Assembly (NCBI GenBank): GCA_963775425.1
Contig: CAVZJB010000013.1
Coordinates: 257,592 to 321,591, forward strand
Direction of reading: 5' to 3'
Length of the DNA stretch: 64,000 nt
From: an uncultured delta proteobacterium
GTDB lineage: Bacteria; Myxococcota; UBA727; VGSZ01
This document shows positions 28,457-56,462 of the stretch, in pieces (position 1 is the first letter of the stretch; every line of letters begins with the position of its first letter). The notes under the pieces are model-generated. The model did not search any database, was not told the DNA's origin, and was given only the letters and a program-made list of their open reading frames with translations. A program made the translations under genes and the position numbers.

Positions 28457-28509
28457 TGCTACAATCCGTGCGACTTGCCGACATGATGTCGGCTAGAATT
28501 ACGTTGGGC
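28457..28509 (+). promoter_or_regulatory. putative cassette promoter (extended -10 TGcTACAAT) and attI-like site ending in core GTTGGGC
   Basis: TGCTACAAT 28457-28465; palindrome GCCGACATGATGTCGGC 28477-28493; GTTGGGCGG at 28503 is complementary to CCGCCCAAC at 30198-30206. Confidence 0.6.
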
Positions 28510-28543
28510 GGCCCCTCGGCGTCGTCACTCGCTTGGAGAAGAC

Positions 28544-29587
28544 ATGACAGCGAAGCGGATTGCGATGTTCAACCACAAGGGTGGCGTGAGCAAGACCACG
28601 ACGACGTTCCATCTCGCGTGGATGTTGGCGTCGAAAGGCAAGCGAGTGATCATGGTTGACGCTGATCCGCAGTGTAATCTCTCCGGGGTGGTCTTGAACT
28701 ATCGGGGGGTGGACGAGTTCGAAAGGTTCTACGAGCAGGACACGAAGAACAACCTCCGCGCGGGCCTCGCTCCTGCGTTCGAGAGCCGTCCGGAGCCGCT
28801 CCAGGCCGTTGAGTGCGTTGAGGTACCCGCGCGCCAAGGGCTTTTCCTCTTGCCTGGTCACATCCGCCTGTCGGAGTACGAAGTGACATTGGGCATCGCC
28901 CAAGAACTTTCGGGTTCCATTCAGACGCTGCAGAACCTCCCCGGCGCAATCTCGTCCGTTCTCGACCTTACTGCTGCGAAGTACAAAGCCGATTTCGTTA
29001 TCGTAGACATGAATCCGAGCTTGTCGTCGATCAATCAGAACATATTGATGACGTCTGACAACTTCATTATACCGGCCTCTCCTGACTTCTTCTCGGTTCT
29101 GGCGATCGACTCTCTCTCCTCTGTCATCCCTCGATGGTGCGCCTGGGCAAAGAAAGCTCAGACAATCGACGCCCTTCGCTCGGCGACCTACCCCTTCCCC
29201 GTCGTGTTGCCGAAGTTCCTCGGTACCGTGATCCAAAAATATCGCCCGCGTGGCGGAAAGGCGTCGGTCGACTTCCAGCGATGGATCGACGACATCAACC
29301 GATCAGTGAAGACCAAACTCCTTCCGGTGCTCCAAGCCGGTGGCCTCCTCGTAGACGACGCACGCTACACAGCGGCAAAGATGGGCCCCGAGAGAAACCT
29401 GTCCCTTATTCCTGACTTCAACACGCTCATTGCTAAGTCTCAAAAGACGTCTACTCCTGTTTTTGCCCTGACGAAAAAGCAACTGGAGCGCAGCGGTCAG
29501 ATTTTGAAGAAGACACTTGAGAATCGAGAGAAGTTCAAAAAACTGTTCCAGGATTTGGCGGAAAAAGTCATCACGCTAACCGCCTAG
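28544..29587 (+). CDS. ParA/Soj-family ATPase (long, defense-associated type)
   Basis: NHKGGVSKTT deviant Walker A, DADPQCNL, VDMNPS; lower GC. Confidence 0.92.
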   Translation: MTAKRIAMFNHKGGVSKTTTTFHLAWMLASKGKRVIMVDADPQCNLSGVVLNYRGVDEFERFYEQDTKNNLRAGLAPAFESRPEPLQAVECVEVPARQGLFLLPGHIRLSEYEVTLGIAQELSGSIQTLQNLPGAISSVLDLTAAKYKADFVIVDMNPSLSSINQNILMTSDNFIIPASPDFFSVLAIDSLSSVIPRWCAWAKKAQTIDALRSATYPFPVVLPKFLGTVIQKYRPRGGKASVDFQRWIDDINRSVKTKLLPVLQAGGLLVDDARYTAAKMGPERNLSLIPDFNTLIAKSQKTSTPVFALTKKQLERSGQILKKTLENREKFKKLFQDLAEKVITLTA

Positions 29588-29590
29588 CAC

Positions 29591-30187
29591 ATGCAGCACG
29601 CGCTCGATCAGTTCAACGAGAACATCGGACGCTGCGAGGCGCTCGGAGCGCTCCATGTCTCCCTGAAGGGTCAACTCACTGCGGCCGTGGATATCTCCGA
29701 CCTCTTGCGGGCCCAAATCGTCCTCGCTGTCAGTGCCTTTGACTTCTATGTGCATGAAGTGACCCGCCTCGGGATGCTCGAGACACAGGCGGGGAGGCGG
29801 CTGCCGGCTACGGAGTCGTTCAACAAGTTCCCGGTCTCTATGGCCTCGGTGAACGTGGCCCTCACTGGCGCTCCCGCTTGGTTCGACGCCGAGATTCGCC
29901 ACCGTCATGGCTTCCTCACCTTCCAGATGCCCGACAAGGTTGCCGACGCCATCCGTCTCATCTCTGACGTCAAGCTGTGGGCAGCAGTCGCGCCCTCTTT
30001 GGGCACGACCGACGTCGCGGCGAAGACACAGCTCAAGCTCATCGTCGAACGCCGGAACAGAATCGCACATGAAGCGGATCAGGACCCGACAACGCCGGGT
30101 CAGCGTTGGCCGATTGATGAACTCCTCGTCGCGAACGCCGTGGATTTCCTCAAGCGAACCGTCGCTGCAATTCACGCCGTGCTATGA
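29591..30187 (+). CDS. HEPN-domain protein (RiboL-PSP/MAE_18760-like)
   Basis: DLLRAQIVLAVSAFDFYVHE, RRNRIAH RxxxxH motif; 3 nt after the ParA stop. Confidence 0.85.
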   Translation: MQHALDQFNENIGRCEALGALHVSLKGQLTAAVDISDLLRAQIVLAVSAFDFYVHEVTRLGMLETQAGRRLPATESFNKFPVSMASVNVALTGAPAWFDAEIRHRHGFLTFQMPDKVADAIRLISDVKLWAAVAPSLGTTDVAAKTQLKLIVERRNRIAHEADQDPTTPGQRWPIDELLVANAVDFLKRTVAAIHAVL

Positions 30188-30199
30188 GCGTTCTGCCCC

Positions 30200-30360
30200 G
30201 CCCAACAACGCACGGCCGCAGAGGTCGCGCTTCGCGCGACACAGCCGCGGTCGCCGCGTGCTCGCTCCTCCGTCGCTGCGCGCGCAGGGTTGTGCTCCGT
30301 CGACAAGCCGCGCCAGAATGAACGTGATCGTGCGGCTGTCGGCCGTGCGCAACGTTGCAC
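30200..30360 (+). other. attC-like recombination site 1
   Basis: GCCCAAC..CGCACGGCCG...CGGCCGTGCG..GTTGCAC inverted structure starting 13 nt after the HEPN stop. Confidence 0.75.
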
Positions 30361-30482
30361 ATGCCCGCTACGCGGGAAAAGGTCGTCGTGACGACGACGA
30401 AGTGGTCAACTCGCTCGCGTCTTTCGATCGACCGTGTTTAGCGACACGCATGTGGCACGGCGCGCGCATCGCGTCGACGGCA

Positions 30483-31670
30483 ATGCCGGCAACGGTGCAG
30501 GACATCTTCCGAAGCGGATTCTCTGCGTTCCAGGGCGATCGCGAGCTCCCTTCACGAATCACCAGGGCTGCGCACGCAATCATCGCGTGCAGGACAGCGA
30601 TGCTCGGTGGTCACGTCGAGCGCTGCCCCGATGGTCACTTCGCAAAGATCCACTACAACTCGTGCCGGCACCGGTCCTGCCCCGGCTGCAGGTTCATCAG
30701 GGTGGAGCAGTGGCTCGAGGTTCAGCGAGCGCGGTTCCTGGACTGCGGTCACCACCACGTCGTGTTCACGATCCCCGAGGAGCTCAACACGCTTTGGAGG
30801 CACAACCGTCGCGAGATGACCGACGTCCTCTTCGCGGCCGCGAGCGAGACCCTGCTGGAGCTCCTCGGGGACCCGAAGCACCTCGGCGCGAAGCCGGGCA
30901 TCATCGCCGCGCTGCACACGTGGGGACAGGCGCTGCAGTTGCATCCGCACCTCCACTGCGTGGTGACCGCGGGTGGCCTCGACGCGAACGGGGACTGGCG
31001 CGATGCGAAGAAACGCATCCTTCTCCCCGGGCGTGTCGCGCGTGACCTGTTTCAGGGGCGCTTTCTCGGCAAGCTCTCCCGGCTGCTCCGCGCACGACGG
31101 CTGCTCCTGCCGGAGGACCTGGACGAGGACGGCGCGGCTCTGCTCATCGACTCGCTTTGGCGGAAGCGGTGGCATGTGCACGTGATGGAGCGGTACAGCA
31201 ACGTCGAGGGCGTCTTGAACTACCTCGGGCGGTACGTGCGTGGCGGCCCGATCGGCAACGGGCGAATCGTTGCGTTCGACGGAGCCACCGTCACGTTCCG
31301 CTACGCGGACAACCGCGACAAGGAGCCCGGCAGCGTGAAGGGCAAGGCGAAGGTGATGACCCTCAGCGTCGACGAGTTCCTGCGCCGGTTCCTTGAGCAC
31401 GTGCCGCCGAGCGGGTTGCGCGTTGTCCGCAGCTACGGTGTCTACGCGAACGCCGCCAAGCGGAGCTCCCTTTCGCGGGCGCGCCGTGTGATGGGCCAGG
31501 AGCCGGCGCGAGAGCCGCGAAGAGCTTCCATCGACGCCGTCGTTGCCAAGCTTCGCTGCCCGGATCCGCGGTGCTGCCCCGCGTGTGGCAAGCGCCTCGT
31601 CCGCGTCGGAGAGCTCCCTCGCGACGACCGAGGGCGACGACGACGACTGGTGACCCGATGCGCAGCATGA
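30483..31670 (+). CDS. IS91-family (Y2 HUH) transposase with zinc-binding N-terminus
   Basis: CRT..GGH..C..YNSCRHRSCPGC, HVVFTIP, LHTWG..HPHLH, YLGRY, C-terminal CPACG. Confidence 0.93.
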   Translation: MPATVQDIFRSGFSAFQGDRELPSRITRAAHAIIACRTAMLGGHVERCPDGHFAKIHYNSCRHRSCPGCRFIRVEQWLEVQRARFLDCGHHHVVFTIPEELNTLWRHNRREMTDVLFAAASETLLELLGDPKHLGAKPGIIAALHTWGQALQLHPHLHCVVTAGGLDANGDWRDAKKRILLPGRVARDLFQGRFLGKLSRLLRARRLLLPEDLDEDGAALLIDSLWRKRWHVHVMERYSNVEGVLNYLGRYVRGGPIGNGRIVAFDGATVTFRYADNRDKEPGSVKGKAKVMTLSVDEFLRRFLEHVPPSGLRVVRSYGVYANAAKRSSLSRARRVMGQEPAREPRRASIDAVVAKLRCPDPRCCPACGKRLVRVGELPRDDRGRRRRLVTRCAA

Positions 31671-31858
31671 GCTGGCCGGGTTGTCGCGTCGGCGACAGAC
31701 CTGCGCGCCGAGACCAGGCGACAGAATGCTCCGAGCCGCGCGACAATCTCCTGCCGCTGCCGGCGATCGAGCAGCGGCACCCACCGGTACGACGGACGGC
31801 GCTCAGGACCGGCGCGGTTCCGAGGGCGACCCGCACCAACGCCCACGTACGCGGGCAC

Positions 31859-31994
31859 GTGCAACAGCGCACTGGCGCAAAGCTCCCCGCCGTGGGCCGC
31901 TGACGCGCCCACAGCGGGGAGTCGTCCGCGCGACACAGCACGTGCAATAATGGGCGTCCTGGCGCGCAGACGCCGCCAGTGCTCAACGTTGGCA
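31859..31994 (+). other. attC-like recombination site 2
   Basis: GTGCAAC.agc.GCACTGGCG...CGCCAGTGC.tcaac.GTTGGCA; shares CGCGCGACACAGC with site 1. Confidence 0.75.
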
Positions 31995-32006
31995 GCGGGA
32001 ACACAG

Positions 32007-33275
32007 ATGACCAAGAACTCCCCCCTTGGTGCCCGGCAGCGGTCGTTCTTCGACCTGCTTCGCGACCGTTCCGGCAAGAGCGTGACGGACGAGGAAATCC
32101 TCGAGGCGACTGGTTGGAAGCGGTCAACTTGGAAGGTCTACTCAGGCAACGGAGTTCTCGATCCGTTCCTCGCCCCGGTATCGGCCGGGACGTACAAAGT
32201 GGTCTGCCCGCCAGACATCGATGAATGGGAGTTTCATCGGCGACTTTCGCAGAGCCCGCAGCGGCGACACATTGGTGCCCCATGCAAGCAGGCGTTGGCT
32301 CGCGAGCTTGTGAAGAAGTCTCGCGACAACATGATTTTGGCGCTCGAACTTTACAATCGCCCCAGTCTTGAGAATCGCCTGGACGCGTTCTCCATGCTCT
32401 TCTGTACAGCCTGGGAACAGTTGCTCAAGGCCGAGCTGATCGAACAAGATGGAGAGACCGCGATCTTCCGTCCGCAGAAGCCGGGCAGGCGCCGTGAGTC
32501 GATCAGCCTAAGTGACGCTGTCGCAAAGTGTTTCGATCAGAACGACCTAGTGCGGAAGAACCTCGAAACAATCGAAGAGCTGCGTCATGGAGCTACTCAT
32601 CTCTTGATGGCCCCGCTCCAGGCGCCACTGTCCCGGTTGTTTCAGGCGGGCGTCATCAACTTCTCAACACGTTTCAAAGAGGTCGCGGCTGAACCGCTCT
32701 TGCCACGTAGTGCAGTGGGACTCCTATCGCTCGTCGGCGACGACTCGTTGCCCGATGCCACGGACCTGAAGAAGCTCTACGGCGAAATCACTGCGGCGGA
32801 CATTGCGGAGCTCGCTGCGGAGTTGGGCACAGAGATCAGGTCCGTGAACGACCCGCGCTTCGCCGTGACGGTGGAGTACCGACTGGCCCTTACAAAGAAG
32901 GAGAAAGACGGAGACATCATGCTGGCGACTGCGGCGGACGGCGCGAACACGGGCCTCGTTCTCGTGAAGCCGGTCAGCGTCGACAAGACCCACCCATTCA
33001 GAGCTGCTGAAGTCCTGACTGAAGTCACGATGCGAACGTCGTTGCCGTTTAATCGACACGATCTGCAGGCTGTCCTTCACAAGGAGGGCTGGAAGAACAG
33101 CGACAACGAGTTCCACCACCTCCAACTGAACCCTGATACCTCGAAGTACTCCGAGAAGGCAGTTGCCTACATTTGCAGATGCATCACGCAACGCCCGGAG
33201 TACCTGCAGAACGCGCGGGAGTCGTTGTCACACCACAACCGATCGCTTCGGAGCAAGTCGAAGACGGCGAGCTGA
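32007..33275 (+). CDS. DUF3644/EC042_2821-like (HEPN-fold) protein with N-terminal wHTH-like region
   Basis: LVKKSRDNMILALELYNRP..AFSMLFCTAWEQLLKA signature, RHGATH motif; ATG 13 nt after the core site. Confidence 0.8.
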   Translation: MTKNSPLGARQRSFFDLLRDRSGKSVTDEEILEATGWKRSTWKVYSGNGVLDPFLAPVSAGTYKVVCPPDIDEWEFHRRLSQSPQRRHIGAPCKQALARELVKKSRDNMILALELYNRPSLENRLDAFSMLFCTAWEQLLKAELIEQDGETAIFRPQKPGRRRESISLSDAVAKCFDQNDLVRKNLETIEELRHGATHLLMAPLQAPLSRLFQAGVINFSTRFKEVAAEPLLPRSAVGLLSLVGDDSLPDATDLKKLYGEITAADIAELAAELGTEIRSVNDPRFAVTVEYRLALTKKEKDGDIMLATAADGANTGLVLVKPVSVDKTHPFRAAEVLTEVTMRTSLPFNRHDLQAVLHKEGWKNSDNEFHHLQLNPDTSKYSEKAVAYICRCITQRPEYLQNARESLSHHNRSLRSKSKTAS

Positions 33276-33554
33276 GTCGCGCAGCCAACAATGATGGGAT
33301 GAGGAGGCCGGTGCTTCGGACGTGCGGCGATCCATGATCGCTCAAGCACAAGGAGGATGGGATGACGTCGACGACAATGACAATCGGAATCGACCTTGGT
33401 GATCGGAAGAGCCACGCCTGCGTGCTCGATGAGCATGGAGAGGTCTTCTGGCGCTCGGAGTTTCCCTCGACGCGAGAAGGAACGTGTCCTTCCGGCAAGC
33501 GTGCGTGACCGGCCCGCCGCCGCGAGGTAGCGCCTCCTCCCTCGGAGGTGGCCC

Positions 33555-33935
33555 ATGGGTGAGACGACGTCGAGGAGAATCGAGCGGCTGCGTGGGGAGA
33601 TCGAGGCGTGGCGCCGCTCGCGCTACGAGCGCGCGCCCCTGCCAGCGCGGTTGTGGAGCGAAGCCGTCGCGGTCGCCCAGGAGCTCGGCGTCAACCGCGC
33701 CCGCGTTGCGCTCGGGCTGAGCTACCGCGGGCTTCAGGCGCATGTCGACCGCGCGGGGACCGCGCCGACCTTCGTCGAGCTCTCGGGCGCCGACGTCCTC
33801 GCTGCGGGCGCGAGCGCGGCGTGCGGCACGTCGATCGAGATCAGCGGCCGCGACGTCCACGTTGTCGTTCGACTCGGCGGCGGCGCAACGGTCGACATCG
33901 CCTCCCTCGTCGACGTCGTGCGAGGACGCGCGTGA
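33555..33935 (+). CDS. tnpA: IS66 TnpA-like accessory protein
   Basis: LPARLWSEAV HTH-like region, FVEL motif, first ORF in the element. Confidence 0.75.
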   Translation: MGETTSRRIERLRGEIEAWRRSRYERAPLPARLWSEAVAVAQELGVNRARVALGLSYRGLQAHVDRAGTAPTFVELSGADVLAAGASAACGTSIEISGRDVHVVVRLGGGATVDIASLVDVVRGRA

Positions 33936-34288
33936 TCCAGGTGACGCCGCAGACGCGCATCCTCGTCGCGGTGGAGCCGCCCGACTTCCGCTGCGGGATC
34001 GACGGGCTCGCCAAGGTGTGCCGCACTCAGCTCGCGGCCGACCCGTTCACCGGCGCCGTCTTCGTGTTCAAGAACCGCCGCTCGACGTCGGTCAAGCTCC
34101 TGGCCTACGACGGCCAGGGGTTCTGGCTCTGCCAGAAGCGGCTCTCCTCGGGCCGGTTCCGCTTCTGGCCGTCGTCGACGAGCGGAGCGTCAACGACACT
34201 CAAGGCGCATGAGCTTCACGTGCTCCTCTTCGGCGGCGACCCGACCGGTACGCGCGCCGCTCCAGCGTGGCGGCCGGTAAGCGCGTAG
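33932..34288 (+). CDS. tnpB: IS66 TnpB accessory protein
   Basis: DFRCGIDGL, VFVFKNRR..KLLAYDGQGFWLCQKRLSSGRF. Confidence 0.93.
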   Translation: MIQVTPQTRILVAVEPPDFRCGIDGLAKVCRTQLAADPFTGAVFVFKNRRSTSVKLLAYDGQGFWLCQKRLSSGRFRFWPSSTSGASTTLKAHELHVLLFGGDPTGTRAAPAWRPVSA

Positions 34289-34368
34289 GCGCTGCCACAA
34301 CTCGAGCCTGAGCGCGATCGATCGTGGAGACGATCCCCTCGCGGATCGTGATGTGATCCAACAGCGCC

Positions 34369-34599
34369 ATGGTGAAACGGCTGAAGCGGCGGGCCCCCAA
34401 GCCCAGGCTCATCGGCAAGGAAGAGGCGGACGCGCTCCTCGCGCGCATGCAGGGCGTGATGAGCGACGAGGACATCGCTTTCGTGCGTTCGGCGCTCGAA
34501 GCGAACCAGTCGATTGGCGATGTGCTCACGTCGTCGATGTCCGAGGCTGACGGCCTCGAACGCATCAAGGCGGCGCTCGCGCGGGTGAGGCGCTCGTGA
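34369..34599 (+). CDS. small ORF resembling the TnpC N-terminus
   Basis: GTGA overlap with tnpC; similarity to the TnpC N-terminal residues seen by eye. Confidence 0.55.
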   Translation: MVKRLKRRAPKPRLIGKEEADALLARMQGVMSDEDIAFVRSALEANQSIGDVLTSSMSEADGLERIKAALARVRRS

Positions 34600-36266
34600 C
34601 CACCCACGGGCCCCAGATCGTCGATGTCGACGCCGAGTTCGCCGCCGCCGTCGTCGGGCGCGCGCAGGTGCTGATGCCGTCCGGCGATGCAGCGTTCATC
34701 GACGCGCTCGTTCAGTCTCACGCACTGGTGATGACCCTGCTTCGCCATGACCGCACGACGATCGCGCGTCTCAAGCGACTCTTCGGCATCGCGAACAGCG
34801 AGAAGACCGACAGTGTCTGTCCACCGTCCAGCCCTGCGAGCGAATCCAGCGACACGACCACGACGACGAGCAACGATGACGAGGTCTCCACCGGCAACGA
34901 CGGCGGTGATCGTGACGACGGCGATGGCGGAGCGAAGCCGAAGGGGCACGGTCGCCTTCCGGCGCTGGCATTCCCCGACGCGCGCCACGTCGAAGTCCGG
35001 CACGACAAGCTGCACGCCGGCGCCACATGTCCGTGCTGCACGCGCGGCAGGCTTTTCGAGATGAGCGAGCCATCGCGGATCGTGCGCATCTTCGGGCAAG
35101 CACCGCTCGCCGCCGTCGAGTGGGACTGCGAGCGCCTCCGCTGCGGTGGCTGCGGCGAGGTGTTCACGGCGAAGGCGCCCGAGGAAGCGCAGGGGCCGAA
35201 GTACGACGACAGCGCCGCGGCGATGATGGCTCTCTTGCGCTACGGCGCCGGTATGCCGCTCAATCGCTTGGACCATCTGCAGAGGAACATGCAGACACCG
35301 GTGCCCGCGTCGACGCAGTGGGAAGTCGCTCGCGATCGCGCCGAGGATCTGCAGCCAGTGTATGAGGAGCTCGCGAAGCGCGCCGCCGCCGGCCGCGTGC
35401 TTCACAACGACGACACCCACGCGCGTATCCTCGCGCTCATGGGTGATCGTCGCGAGCACCTCATCGAGAAGGGCGAGCTCCCCGACCCCAAGCGCACAGG
35501 CCTGTTCACCACCGGCGTCGTCGCCGAGACCGAGGACGGGCGCATCGCGCTGTTTTTCACCGGGCGCAAGCACGCTGGCGAGAACCTCACGGACGTCCTC
35601 GCCGCGCGCGACGGCAAGCTCGACCCGCCCGTGCAGATGTGCGACGGCCTCGACCGCAACCTGCCCAAGGGGCACACTGTCGTCCTCGCCAACTGCCTGT
35701 GCCACGGACGCCGCAACTTCGTCGACGAGGTGAACAACTTCCCCGACGAGTGTCGCCACGTCCTCGAGGAACTCCGCATCGTCTTCCGCGCCGAGGCGAC
35801 GTGCCGTAGGAAGTGCCTGACGCCCGAACAGCGGCTCGTCCTTCACCAACAGAAGAGCGCGCCCGTGATGGAGCGCCTGCGCGCCTGGATGAACGAGATG
35901 CTCGCCGACAAGCGCGTGGAGCCGAACTCCGGGCTCGGCAAGGCCTTCGCGTATCTCCTCGCGCGATGGGGGCCGTTGACCCTGTTCCTCCACGTCGCTG
36001 GCGCGCCGCTCGAGAACAACATCTGCGAGCGCGCGCTGAAGATGGCGATCCGCCACCGCAACAACTCGCTCTTCTACAGGAGCGAACGCGGCGCCAATGT
36101 GGGCGACCTGTACATGACGCTCATCCATACGGCAGAGCTCCACGGCGTGAACGCGTTCGAGTACCTCACGACGCTGCTCCGCCATGCGCGCGACCTCGCC
36201 GATGATCCGGGGGCCTGGTTGCCGTGGACGTTCCGCGCGACGCTCGAGCACCGGCGCGCCGCGTAG
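34596..36266 (+). CDS. tnpC: IS66 DDE transposase TnpC
   Basis: KGHGR, CPCC..CGGC zinc motif, HNDDT, CLCHGRRNF, NNICERALK..RNNSLF. Confidence 0.95.
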   Translation: MTTHGPQIVDVDAEFAAAVVGRAQVLMPSGDAAFIDALVQSHALVMTLLRHDRTTIARLKRLFGIANSEKTDSVCPPSSPASESSDTTTTTSNDDEVSTGNDGGDRDDGDGGAKPKGHGRLPALAFPDARHVEVRHDKLHAGATCPCCTRGRLFEMSEPSRIVRIFGQAPLAAVEWDCERLRCGGCGEVFTAKAPEEAQGPKYDDSAAAMMALLRYGAGMPLNRLDHLQRNMQTPVPASTQWEVARDRAEDLQPVYEELAKRAAAGRVLHNDDTHARILALMGDRREHLIEKGELPDPKRTGLFTTGVVAETEDGRIALFFTGRKHAGENLTDVLAARDGKLDPPVQMCDGLDRNLPKGHTVVLANCLCHGRRNFVDEVNNFPDECRHVLEELRIVFRAEATCRRKCLTPEQRLVLHQQKSAPVMERLRAWMNEMLADKRVEPNSGLGKAFAYLLARWGPLTLFLHVAGAPLENNICERALKMAIRHRNNSLFYRSERGANVGDLYMTLIHTAELHGVNAFEYLTTLLRHARDLADDPGAWLPWTFRATLEHRRAA

Positions 36267-37250
36267 CCGCCCCTACAGCACCGCGGCCGTGGCCGTCACG
36301 CACGCTTGCCGGAAGCACACGAAGGAACGACCAACTTTCTCCGTGGCTTCACCGCAGCTCGCGTGGTGATGGAGGTCGGGACGCACTCACGCTGGGCAAG
36401 CGTCATCGCGAAGGAGCTCGGCCACGAGGTCATCGTCGCGAACCCGACCCACGTGCGCATGATCTATGCGAGCACGACGAAGTCGGACCAGTTCGACGCT
36501 GAGGCGCTCGCCCGCTTGGGCAGAGTGGACGTCGCTCTGCTCCATCCTCTCCGCCACCGAAGCCGGAACGCCCAGGCCGCGCTTGCGATCGTGAAGTCTC
36601 GCGACGTGATGGTCCGCGCGCGGACCGACCTCGTGAACCACGTGCGCATCGTGGTGAAAGCGGATGGCGCGCGCCTGAGCAAGTGCGACGCGAACCAGTT
36701 CGCGAAGAAGGTCCGTGGCGAGGTGCCGGATGCGCTTTCTCTTGCGTTGTCCCCGGTCCTCGACGCCATCGAAGAGCTGACGAGGAAGATCCGCGCTCTC
36801 GAGTCCCTCATCGAGCGGGTGTCGAAGGTGCACTTCCCCGAGACGGCCCGGCTGCTCCAGGTGAAGGGCGTGGGCCCCGTGACTGCGCTCGCGTTCGTGC
36901 TCACGCTGGAGGACGTGAAGCGCTTCGAGGACCCTAGGGACATCGGTGCATACCTCGGGCTCGTTCCTCGGCGGCGCCAGTCGGGCGACCTCGACCCGAA
37001 CCTGCGCATCTCGAAGGCCGGCGACGGCTACCTCCGGCGCCTCCTGGTGAACTGCGCGCACTACATTACGGGCCCGCTTGGCCCCGACTGCGACTTGCGC
37101 CGGTTCGGGCATCGCCTCGCGCCTCCTGGCTCGAAGGTGCGGAACAAGCGCGCCGTCGTCGCCGTCGCGCGCAAGCTCGCGGTGCTGCTGGTGCAGTTGT
37201 GGCAAACGGGATCGGCGTACGAGCCGCTGCGCCAGGCCGCGGCTGCGTGA

Positions 37251-37420
37251 ACCCTCGACGGAGAAAGGCAGCTGGCAGAAGGAGGATGTTCTTGGCGACC
37301 TGAACCGTTTCAACGCTTCAAGCCTATGACGCTTCGTCCGTGTGACTGCGCGCCGTGCATGAGCCTCGAGCTCGGAACAATGATGGCAGCACGCGAACGA
37401 TTCGGACCACTCTGGGGTCT
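37251..37420 (+). ncRNA. candidate IS110/IS1111 bridge (seek) RNA in the downstream noncoding end
   Basis: Noncoding region after the transposase contains AACAATGATGG (37376-37386), identical to 33287-33297 at the left junction; boundaries uncertain. Confidence 0.45.
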
Positions 37421-37518
37421 GAGTAGGCGAAACGGTGGTGCCAGCGAACAACGCGTCGCCGGAGCGACCAGGCAAGGTCGCAGCAACAAGCGGGGTGGAT
37501 CCCGCCAAGGCAAGGAGT

Positions 37519-37573
37519 AGCCAACCGCCTTGTATCGAGTCTTGCAGCGTCGACGGCAACGGCGGCGTTGAAG
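37519..37573 (+). other. attC-like site 3 (short, 55 bp)
   Basis: AGCCAAC.CGCC.TTG..TCGA...TCGA..CAA.GGCG.gc.GTTGAAG. Confidence 0.5.
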
Positions 37574-37738
37574 CGTGTGCGGCGCCATCGCACCGGGACG
37601 TCTGTCGACGCGAGCATCGATGAGGGTGTCGTCGTCTCCCGCACGGCCCCGTCCCGCCTGCGGCTCGAGCGAGGATTCGCAGTCGACCAGCGCGGGCGAA
37701 GACACGTAGAATCCCATAGGCTGTGCCTCAGCGCTTTC

Positions 37739-40190: not shown

Positions 40191-40991
40191 ATGCGACACC
40201 TCACCTCGATCCCGTTCGCCCTCGCGCTCTTCGCGAGCGCCGCGGCGCACAGCCAGCCCGCAGCCGCTCCGCCGGGCCCGAACGAGTTCGTGATCCACAA
40301 GGCGGAGCACAAGGAGCCGAAGAAGGCGTCGAAGATCAAGCCCACCGACACCGAAGCCGCGGTGAGGCTCTCCGTGGTGGACAAGAAGACGGGGGCCGGG
40401 ATCCCCGGCGTCGTCGTCTGCTTCAAGGCGCCCGACGGCAAGAAGTACTACGCGGACGAGACCGATGCCGACGGCGACGCGGAGCTCGCGGTGCCGATCA
40501 GCCAGACGTACGAGATCACCTATCTGAGCCTCGGGCGAAGCAAGGTGACCGCCAAGGCCGCCGTCGACGGCACGCCGAACCACAACATCCATCTGACGCT
40601 CCGCTACCAGCGCCATCGCGGCTCCGCAGGCGAGGCGGCGCCGCGCGTCGTGCTCGACGGTCTGCAGTTCGACACCGGCAAGGCGGACATCCGGCCGGAG
40701 TCCCTGCCGCGGCTCGACAGCATCGTCGAGTACATGACCCACAAGCCGAGCATGCGAATCGAGATCTCGGGGCACACGGACAACGTCGGGAACCCGAAGA
40801 AGAACAAGGATCTCTCGCTGCGACGCGCGCGGTCTTGCCGGAGCTACCTCGTGTCGAAAGGCATCGACGCCGCGCGCATCGTGGCCGTCGGCAAGGGCGA
40901 AGAGATGCCGATCGCAACGAACGACACGCCGGAGGGGCGGCAGAAGAACCGCCGCATCGAAGCGGTCGAGCTGACAACCCGCTCGCCGTAG
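40191..40991 (+). CDS. OmpA-family peptidoglycan-binding protein
   Basis: FDTGKA, ISGHTDNVG..NKDLSLRRA, GRQKNRRIE. Confidence 0.92.
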   Translation: MRHLTSIPFALALFASAAAHSQPAAAPPGPNEFVIHKAEHKEPKKASKIKPTDTEAAVRLSVVDKKTGAGIPGVVVCFKAPDGKKYYADETDADGDAELAVPISQTYEITYLSLGRSKVTAKAAVDGTPNHNIHLTLRYQRHRGSAGEAAPRVVLDGLQFDTGKADIRPESLPRLDSIVEYMTHKPSMRIEISGHTDNVGNPKKNKDLSLRRARSCRSYLVSKGIDAARIVAVGKGEEMPIATNDTPEGRQKNRRIEAVELTTRSP

Positions 40992-41325
40992 GGCGGGGGC
41001 TTGTCCCCCGCCTCGGAGAGACCCGGCGCCGTGCCAGCCAGGTCGACGCGCCGTAGCGCGGGGGCTTGTCCCCGCGCCGTAGGGCGGGGGCTTGTCCCCC
41101 GCGCCGTAGGGCGGGGGCTTGTCCCCCGCGCCGTAGGGCGGGGGCTTGTCCCCCGCCTCGGAGAGACCCGGCGCCGTGCCATGCGCGACGTCGTCGTCCC
41201 CGCCGCGGAGACCCGCAGCGCGAGACAGGCGCCGAGGGCGCGCGGCGTGGACATTCGCGGCGGGGCACACCGTCGTCGTCAACGACAAGCCCCGTCCCGC
41301 CGGGGATGTCGTCACGCCGCCAAGC
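40988..41325 (+). repeat. REP type 1 tandem array (26-27 bp period) plus flanking module
   Basis: GTAG at 40988, 41053, 41079, 41106 and 41133; the first REP supplies the OmpA stop codon. Confidence 0.9.
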
Positions 41326-55969: not shown

Positions 55970-56462
55970 TCGAGACGCGCGCCCGGGTGTGACGATTTGC
56001 GAACCGCGGTGCGTAGGGCGGGGGCTTGTCCCCCGCATCCCCACGCGCGCCCGCCGACGGAAAAGGCGGGGGACGAGCCCCCGCCCTACGGGTCGTCGAC
56101 GTAGCCGACGTCGCGAATGGCTCGAAACGCGCGCCCGGGTGTGACGATTTGCGAACCGCGGTGCGTAGGGCGGGGGCTTGTCCCCCCGCGTCCCCACGCG
56201 CGCCCGCCGACGGAAAAGGCGGGGGACGAGCCCCCTACGGGTCGTCGACGTAGCCGACGTCGCGAATGGCTCGAAGCGCGCGCCCGGTGTGACGATTTGC
56301 GAACCGCGGTGCGTAGGGCGGGGGCTTGTCCCCCGCATCCCCACGCGCGCCCGCCGACGGAAAAGGCGGGGGACGAGCCCCCGCCCTACGGGTCGTCGAC
56401 GTAGCCGACGTCGCGAATGGGCTCGAAACGCGCGCCCGGCTTGACGATTTTCGAACCGCGCT
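55970..56462. repeat. BIME/REPIN-like array: ~150-bp unit x3 plus a partial, each with a convergent REP pair
   Basis: Unit starts at 55987, 56139, 56287 and partial at 56440; GTAGGGCGGGGGCTTGTCCCCCGC..GCGGGGGACGAGCCCCCGCCCTAC. Confidence 0.92.

Follow-up and report, generated by a model that had tools for sequence, protein, structure and literature searches.

How does an IS91-type transposase gene come to stand in the place of an integron cassette, and which enzyme would move it from there? The question is raised by a 64-kb stretch of DNA at the end of contig C13 of an uncultured delta proteobacterium (genome G000, 8.26 Mb, about 72% G+C), which we call the window. It harbors a unit of 1,634 bp (30354-31987; the unit and the parts of the cassette row around it are given on the + strand) with a single intact transposase gene of the Y2/HUH type. 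Where integron cassettes and their attC sites come from is a long-standing question, and the usual link between IS91 elements and integrons is one of mere neighborhood, as in the case of ISCR1. Here, the IS91-type transposase gene has the full format of a cassette and occurs inside an array as well as in the attI-like slot beside a recombinase gene. A preliminary description of the window had reported such a packaged transposase at 30354-31994 and had proposed that the element is moved as a cassette or that the HUH enzyme itself targets or creates the flanking sites. The observation is confirmed by our analysis, while the interpretation is supported in part. With a probability of roughly 55%, we consider the unit to be a recombinase-less IS91 derivative that is moved as a cassette by the recombinase of the array.

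The gene tnpA (30450-31670), apparently intact by its Pfam and NCBIfam matches, encodes a protein of 406 aa that combines, as expected for the IS91 family, a Y2_Tnp domain (PF04986, E-value 7.6e-57; HUH with two tyrosines) with a zinc-binding N-terminus (Zn_Tnp_IS91, PF14319, 2.2e-24). The NCBIfam equivalog for IS91 family transposases, NF033538, is matched with 387 bits at a cut-off of 125 and over 355 of the 356 profile positions, and reading of the translation by eye gave the motifs HPHLH and YLGRY. The unit opens with the left terminus GTTGCACATGCCCGC (30354-30376), where the homology with a second copy of the unit begins. This terminus is an R'-like arm, or left inverted repeat, and overlaps a small hairpin, CCCGC-TAC-GCGGG (30364-30376). 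Its partner is the R''-like right arm GCGGGCACGTGCAAC (31851-31865), assigned by the inverted-repeat match and by its counterpart CGG[CT]TTCGTTCAAC in homologues. The two arms, 30354-30368 and 31851-31865, are 93% complementary (14 of 15 nt, and 15 of 15 if the second copy supplies the left arm). The sequences GTTGCAC (30354-30360) and GTGCAAC (31859-31865), which had been named as the exact bounds of the element, are the tips of this 15-nt inverted repeat and were located correctly to the base.

The junction with the next cassette is formed by GTTGGCA (31988-31994), whose last base is the end coordinate of the preliminary description. Read directly, it can be taken as G|TT of a cassette or as the target GTTG of an IS91 element. 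Indeed, GTTG both opens the unit and comes after it, which fits the IS91 target rule and equally the integron rule G|TT, in this one complete copy. The word CAACGTTG is found 24 times in the 8.26-Mb genome, where 54 occurrences would be expected; the unit is flanked by two of the 24, which lie 1,634 bp apart. With regard to IS91 ends, the unit possesses one left hairpin (30364-30376) and right hairpins within 31866-31987, and its ends are homologous to those of related elements. With regard to cassettes, its boundaries are G|TT and its R'' is complementary to its own first bases over 14 of 15 nt.

Behind the right arm, we found a branched hairpin of about 125 nt (31866-31987) that ends in CAAC|GTTGGCA. 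The complete attC-like site of the unit, site 2, spans 31855-32001 and consists of an outer stem GCGCACTGGCG / CGCCAGTGC, two inner hairpins and then TCAAC|GTTGGCA, so that the open reading frame (ORF) is followed by a bulged hairpin of the order R''(..AAC)-L''-variable-L'-R'(GTT..), as in a cassette. The claim that the unit has its own attC-like hairpin stands up well. Folded as single-stranded DNA, the stretch 31840-32000 reaches -53.6 and -58.8 kcal/mol (z-scores of -3.5 and -5.0), and none of 200 shuffles folds equally well. A covariance model, R1, which was built from the site on the left of the unit and five copies from relatives, matches site 2 over its whole length with 30.4 bits (E-value 1.6e-6 in 130 kb). 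The motifs common to site 2 and this site family are GCGCAAAG, AUAAUG..CGUC.UG and GUGCUCAACGUUGG.

The left site, site 1 (30191-30360; R'' GCCCAAC at 30200-30206 ... CAAC|GTTG), is the attC-like site of cassette 1 and, as one of the six model-building sequences, scores 170 bits with R1. It is about 165 bp long and has copies at 70-85% identity in the genomes G006 and G002, which, together with G004, are array-bearing relatives from the same bacterial family as G000. Six full copies give a consensus fold with 45 pairs, 8 of them with compensatory changes. In an alignment of 32 sites, 93.2% of the cells are paired, compared with 71.8% in shuffles and 27-45% after sliding of the partner column. 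Of the 45 pairs, 28 differ on both sides across the sites, and none of 500 shuffles attains a score as high as the observed one. This alignment was fitted to R1, a procedure which favors the covariation result. The folding energy of site 1 does not exceed that of shuffles (z-scores of -1.2 and -1.7; 27 and 16 of 200 fold equally well), so that the structure of site 1 rests on the covariation. With nhmmer and four copies, the search recovered no more than four genomic members and did not detect site 2, which made the covariance model necessary. Sites 1 and 2 belong to one structured repeat family of recombination-type sites.

R1 detected 35 sites in 6 of the 11 genomes of the family. In G006 the sites are co-oriented and lie at contig ends, with nine on one strand of contig C11, five on C3, two on C2 and two on C20. 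The stretches between them measure 0.7-1.7 kb, with one of 3.7 kb, and mostly hold one sense ORF each. Among 13 cassette ORFs, nine gave no Pfam match; the others encode a HicB antitoxin, a NACHT/HD protein, a pseudopilin-like protein and a collagen-repeat protein. The sites also obey the integron boundary rule: the bases after GTT of one site and the R'' of the next site form a perfect complement of 9-11 nt in 8 of 10 adjacent pairs of G006, the remaining two having runs of 3 and 6 nt. In 214 non-adjacent comparisons, 203 gave runs of at most 6 nt and five gave runs of at least 9 nt. The rule marks the cassettes, by all appearances, as former circles that were closed across GTT. We had also considered the left site as a REP/MITE target or an RNA gene; this was dropped given the arrays and the boundary rule, and Rfam gave no match on the sites.

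The IS91 unit is slot 2 of a co-oriented cassette row in the window. The row starts with cassette 1, whose first bases GTTGGGCGG (28503-28513) follow a junction ..AGAATTAC|GTT; over its initial 9 nt, the cassette matches the R'' arm of site 1 (30195-30206) in reverse complement. A motif of about 30 nt, without longer homology, suggests that this junction at 28.5 kb is of the attI type. The sequence AGAAT, 0-3 nt ahead of GTT, is also present at the first-cassette junctions beside the recombinase genes of G006, G002 and G000:C11, although blastn detected no extended homology between the 28.5-kb junction and that of C11, and the alignment of the attI regions was uninformative. The part of the window from 28 to 40 kb is marked by a dip in G+C content to 0.57-0.70, compared with 0.70-0.80 in the flanks. 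An empty site could not be identified: the flanking HEPN and DUF3644 genes have no orthologues in the 10 other genomes of the family, where the HEPN protein gave a single weak match and the cargo of cassette 1 showed no other orthologue.

A second copy of the unit lies next to a recombinase gene. It is situated in G000 at C11:878748-879490, is 99% identical to 30352-31094 of the window over 743 bp, and then breaks off. Its left arm is the perfect complement of the right arm of the unit. Although truncated, this copy is the first cassette at the attI-like junction beside the only array-type recombinase gene of G000, so that both copies of the unit lie at crossover points, one at the attC-like site 1 and one at an attI-like junction. 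In addition, we noticed 46 nt past the truncated copy the sequence ..GAAAC|GTTGGGAC (L002: 2244-2310), which may be a remnant of the 3' end of a site.

In each of G000, G006 and G002, the best match to the integron-integrase model is one orthologous gene. Directly beside it, at 150-390 bp depending on the choice of the start codon, the first cassette starts behind AGAAT(N0-3)|GTT (G006:C20, G002:C145 and G000:C11), and this first cassette is a different one in each of these related genomes, as expected for cassette turnover at one attI-like junction next to a recombinase gene. In G004:C192, a site is located upstream of the recombinase gene as well. Arrays of structured sites of about 165 nt adjoin a recombinase without the IntI-specific insert in G006:C20 (L079), G002:C145 (L024), G004:C192 and G000:C11 (L022). 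The arrays and this recombinase may represent an integron-like system with a non-canonical integrase. Of the 301 genomes in the phylum sample, 12 possess the recombinase family, each in a single copy, and relatives with 50-83% identity occur in metagenome-assembled genomes labelled Deltaproteobacteria, Myxococcota and Planctomycetes. The array family, the partner recombinases of IS91 elements (see below) and IntI1 form one group, separate from eight other recombinases of G000, in a tree with 36 recombinases (support 93/88); IntI1 is the sole IntI in this tree and sits on a long branch. A tree published by Cury in 2016 of non-IntI recombinases near attC sites reportedly exists and may bear on this assignment.

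We next turn to the homologues of the transposase. Among the accessible relatives, the nearest share 33-45% identity with it. Our genome collection contained no close relative of the unit, and the identity reached at most 44% in metagenome loci and likewise in 300 genomes of the phylum. In a set of 5.8 billion proteins, two TnpA homologues stand out with 69% (P0002) and 67% (P0003), followed by proteins with at most 52%. P0002 and the array-type recombinase P0137, which is 72% identical to that of G006, each lie on a Logan contig of 3,302 bp and may share one contig, which would repeat the C11 layout in another organism; because equal Logan lengths also arise by chance (1,844 bp is found in both lists), this pairing is a lead only.

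In 13 of the 13 homologue loci with enough upstream DNA, which represent 11 distinct elements, a co-directional tyrosine recombinase gene lies directly upstream of the transposase gene. Upstream integrase genes, for which the preliminary description had suggested checking other copies, are hence the norm among the homologues, and a transposase without such a partner is the exception rather than the rule. Annotated pairs of a site-specific integrase and an IS91 family transposase exist in pBPHY02 of Paraburkholderia phymatum and in pSymA of Sinorhizobium. ISfinder also lists recombinase-partnered members of the IS91 family. In the window itself, no tyrosine recombinase was found over the 64 kb (best tblastn E-value 0.88), in agreement with what had been reported for this locus.

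The ends of these homologues are informative. The left terminus GTTGAACGAA[AG]CCGC-loop-GCGG is shared by 8 of the 11 distinct recombinase-partnered loci of the phylum sample and by an element of genome G268. On the right, CGG[CT]TTCGTTCAAC followed by a hairpin of 36-90 nt occurs at seven loci, giving the arrangement of a small-hairpin left end with GTTGAAC and a right end with GTTCAAC, a long hairpin and GTT. The arms remain complementary through the differences between the elements and are in this sense compensatory. The left end of the unit, GTTGCACGTGCCCGCTACGCGGG, has the same structure as those of the homologues, for example GTTGAACGAAGCCGCTACGCGG of L037. Because the same termini recur across the recombinase-partnered homologues, the apparent integron cores GTTRRRY and RYYYAAC are evidently the conserved ends of this IS91 subgroup. 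The idea that homologues are flanked by AAC-hairpin-GTT is accordingly borne out for the ends of the elements (left end at 8 of 11 loci, right arm and hairpin at seven), but not for array sites, since none of 16 homologue loci gave a match to the site model. At three proteobacterial plasmid loci, the subgroup termini were not found (0 of 3). Mapping of the ends by multiple copies gave no result in G084 and G205, where the elements are single-copy.

How could the unit then have reached its present place? In the explanation that we prefer, it would be a derivative of the recombinase-partnered IS91 subgroup that has kept only the transposase gene and the termini. These termini have the layout of an integron cassette, in which GTTGCAC.. 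pairs with ..GTGCAAC ahead of a long hairpin that is followed by GTT. The own partner recombinase would have been lost, and the hairpin, being of the local type, would therefore be recognized by the host enzyme. The host recombinase would excise the unit and insert it as a cassette with a crossover at G|TT, the attI-like site and the gaps from one site to the next being its main targets. As a speculative further step, nicking of the ends by the transposase may still provide circles of single-stranded DNA, and the joined ends of these circles would fold into the site. Movement by the array recombinase is favored by four points: both insertions are at recombination junctions, the hairpin is of the local family, the partner recombinase is lost, and the right arm is at the position of R''. 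For the proposal that the element is moved as a cassette, its format speaks in favor (one ORF, a start at G|TT of the upstream site, a site of the same family, the R'' rule, a co-oriented row and a second copy at an attI-like junction), while the homologues, which gave no match to the site model at any of 16 loci, and the dispersed G268 derivative described next speak against it.

Several observations weigh against movement of the unit by the array recombinase. At the sequence level, a crossover at G|TT looks the same as the insertion of an IS91 element 5' of GTTG, and the features of the junctions (GTTG opening and trailing the unit, one left and two right subterminal palindromes) fit the rolling-circle model of IS91, as described in PMC13181058, equally well. 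G268 contains a non-autonomous derivative of about 983 bp (L108-L137, L124, L125) that lacks both genes, has the same termini and occupies at least 14 dispersed sites. The 11 copies for which both flanks are available have GTT on both sides, with N-GTT|GAACG (9) or GTTT|GAACG (2) on the left and ..CTG|GTT[AT] on the right; neither arrays nor hairpins were found near these copies, and there is no AAC ahead of the left junction. Furthermore, since the right end of the second copy is deleted, the genome has a single complete unit. Nor is the recombinase of the array a canonical IntI: its score with TIGR02249 is 182 bits at a cut-off of 265, it has 18 residues where IntI4 has 57, which is about 39 fewer, and the spacing from GKG to HxLRH is 66-69 in 15 of 15 family members (68 in that of G000) compared with 107 in IntI1. 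A complete integron, in which an intI gene with the IntI-specific domain lies beside attI and the array, was not found here. The action of the array recombinase on these sites is a predicted role. For five more distant recombinase homologues (45-61% identity), the 6-8 kb upstream gave neither a match to the site model (E <= 0.01) nor an obvious array of repeats. The four genomes in which recombinase and array are linked are relatives and not independent cases, and the lack of a tyrosine recombinase in the window makes its array resemble a cluster of attC sites lacking integrase (CALIN).

These points lead to a possible, though in our view doubtful, alternative, namely that the unit is a self-transposing IS91 insertion sequence (30354-31987) which moves by rolling-circle transposition from a right, oriIS-like to a left, terIS-like end and inserts 5' of GTTG, integron-type junctions offering such a GTTG behind a look-alike hairpin. 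The transposase appears intact, a whole IS91 subgroup has ends homologous to those of the unit, the G268 derivative has dispersed with the same ends, and the end of site 1, GCCGTGCGCAAC, resembles the end of the unit itself, GCCAGTGCTCAAC. The target GTTN beside the right end, the missing target duplication and the subterminal palindromes also agree with the description of the family in PMC13181058. The tetranucleotide GTTG, however, would be present tens of thousands of times in the genome (an estimate from the base composition rather than a computed count), and two of two insertions are found exactly at recombination crossover points, one of them attI-like and without a similar hairpin. Moreover, the right hairpin has the motifs of the local site family, while the hairpins of the other IS91 elements all differ; the 15-nt right arm is positioned 122 nt inside the right end, exactly as the R'' of a cassette would be; and classical IS91 members possess, according to PMC13181058, two functionally distinct ends instead of terminal inverted repeats. 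That the unit is an ordinary, now immobile IS91 insertion, with GC-rich palindromes that make it look like a cassette by chance, is very improbable. One could cite for it that the left site does not fold better than shuffles and that only two copies exist, one of them truncated. It would leave unexplained that the site model matches site 2, that the site family covaries, that the boundary rule holds, that the second copy sits at an attI-like junction and that both copies share 743 bp at 99% identity.

The bolder proposal of the preliminary description, a hybrid system in which the Y2/HUH transposase itself recognizes or creates attC-like sites and makes or moves cassettes by rolling-circle or one-ended transposition, we consider improbable. 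The joined ends of the subgroup elements would indeed fold as R''-hairpin-R', which is the topology of attC, the partner recombinases group with the array family and IntI1 in the tree described above, and Y2_Tnp genes or fragments are present in all four array-bearing genomes that we searched, so that they may play a part. Against this stand the other cassettes, which lack IS91 termini beyond the short match of R' and R'', and the Y2_Tnp genes of G006, G002 and G004, which lie on contigs or at positions without site matches; together with the result for the 16 homologue loci, the tests that we ran give no support for a generation of cassettes by the HUH enzyme. A related scenario, unlikely but less so than the hybrid system, is an element with two enzymes: the HUH enzyme would peel off or replicate a single-stranded circle, the ends of which would fold into R''-hairpin-R', and the IntI-like partner would integrate it at GTT. 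The arrays would then be a sedentary offshoot or a sister, and the tnpA cassette a living intermediate. As a separate observation, G000:C8 has another attC-like site that is flanked, at a distance of 2-4 kb, by a Y2_Tnp fragment and by the gene of a second, divergent IS91-family transposase (L162: 2502-3236, 5568-5733, 9678-11132); no subgroup termini were seen there.

If the simple reading is true, in which the recombinase of the array moves the unit in the form of a cassette, we are dealing with a curiosity, namely a selfish gene on an integron-like platform. If the bold one is true, it would connect single-strand HUH transposition with integron recombination and provide a concrete route for the origin of the ORF-plus-attC cassette. 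In any case, a recombinase-partnered IS91 subgroup that ends in GTTRRRY ... RYYYAAC plus a hairpin offers a possible link between IS91 and integron-type mobile DNA, and the locus exposes arrays whose putative recombinase lacks the IntI-specific domain. In the literature that we covered, we found neither an IS91 transposase described as a cassette nor attC-like IS91 ends nor arrays served by an insert-less recombinase.

The neighboring cassettes likely carry defense genes. The cargo of cassette 1 (28544-30187) consists of a ParA-like ATPase (28544-29587; Pfam AAA_31, 1.3e-29) and a HEPN RiboL-PSP protein (29591-30187; HEPN_RiboL-PSP, 6.5e-9), while cassette 3 encodes a DUF3644 protein (32007-33275; Pfam DUF3644, 1.9e-40), a candidate defense gene that matches the PADLOC candidate system PDC-S19 (4.7e-64). 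The R'' arm of the cassette 3 site, CGCGCAGCCAAC (33278-33289), matches the reverse complement of GTTGGCAGCGGG in 10 of 12 nt; the rest of this site is broken by nested insertion sequences. An IS110-family element occupies the site (33290-37440), with an N-terminal fragment at 33362-33505 and a C-terminal part at 36306-37250, and is itself split by an IS66 element (33608-36266), a situation which recalls the IS1111-attC group. At 37441-37616 follows an attC-like 5' half (GCCAGCGAACAACGCG..) and then a match to the group II intron domains D1-D4 (37497-37616) with 43.7 bits, which is below the gathering score of 49. As by-catch of a pattern search, we noted repeated GTAGGGCGGGG words with a spacing of about 27 nt at 40988-41143 and 56013-56389.

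Finally, we compared the unit with known systems. With integron cassettes and CALINs, as described in PMC4889954 (Cury et al. 2016), it shares the single ORF with an imperfect-palindrome site that has ..AAC and GTT.. triplets, the GTT boundaries, the R'' complementary to its own first bases, the co-oriented arrays, a changing first cassette beside a tyrosine recombinase and a cargo of ORFans, toxin-antitoxin and defense genes. The differences are that the sites here are about 150-180 nt long and branched, that the recombinase is without the IntI insert and that the cargo is a transposase gene with insertion sequence termini. In PMC4889954, CALINs are defined as attC-site clusters lacking integrase and proteins without the IntI-specific insert count as not IntI, so that the standard criterion would file the present arrays as integrase-less CALINs.

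With IS91, IS801 and IS1294, the unit has in common, according to PMC13181058, the Y2/HUH domain with a zinc-binding N-terminus and one left and one or two right palindromes; its one complete copy also has GTTN by the right end, an opening tetranucleotide of the same type as the following one and apparently no target duplication, a junction that equally fits a cassette boundary. In these elements, the same paper states, terIS is upstream and oriIS downstream of tnpA, with a target of the GTTC/CTTG type at the right end. The unit differs from them in its 15-nt inverted repeat, the right arm of which stands before the hairpin and not at the tip, in a hairpin of the host site family and in the fact that both insertions are at recombination junctions. 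The recombinase-partnered IS91 elements are closest, with a transposase 33-45% identical and a homologous left terminus and right arm with hairpin, but the unit has no recombinase gene, and the terminal motif was not found at the three plasmid loci.

Similar to the IS1111-attC group and the group IIC-attC introns, the unit is a mobile element that occupies an integron recombination site. IS1111-attC and group IIC-attC elements insert within the site and interrupt it. Unlike the IS1111-attC type, the unit leaves a site on each side that is complete by the model, and it sits exactly between the crossover points. The window also contains the IS110-family element in the next site and the group II intron fragment, and a linkage of group II introns with integrons is reported in the abstract of PMC7923331. 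ISCR1 beside class 1 integrons is likewise an IS91-like transposase that is physically tied to an integron. Its place is past the 3' conserved segment, and it is known neither to have attC sites at its borders nor to possess a terIS. Here, unlike ISCR1, the IS91 unit is itself a formal cassette.

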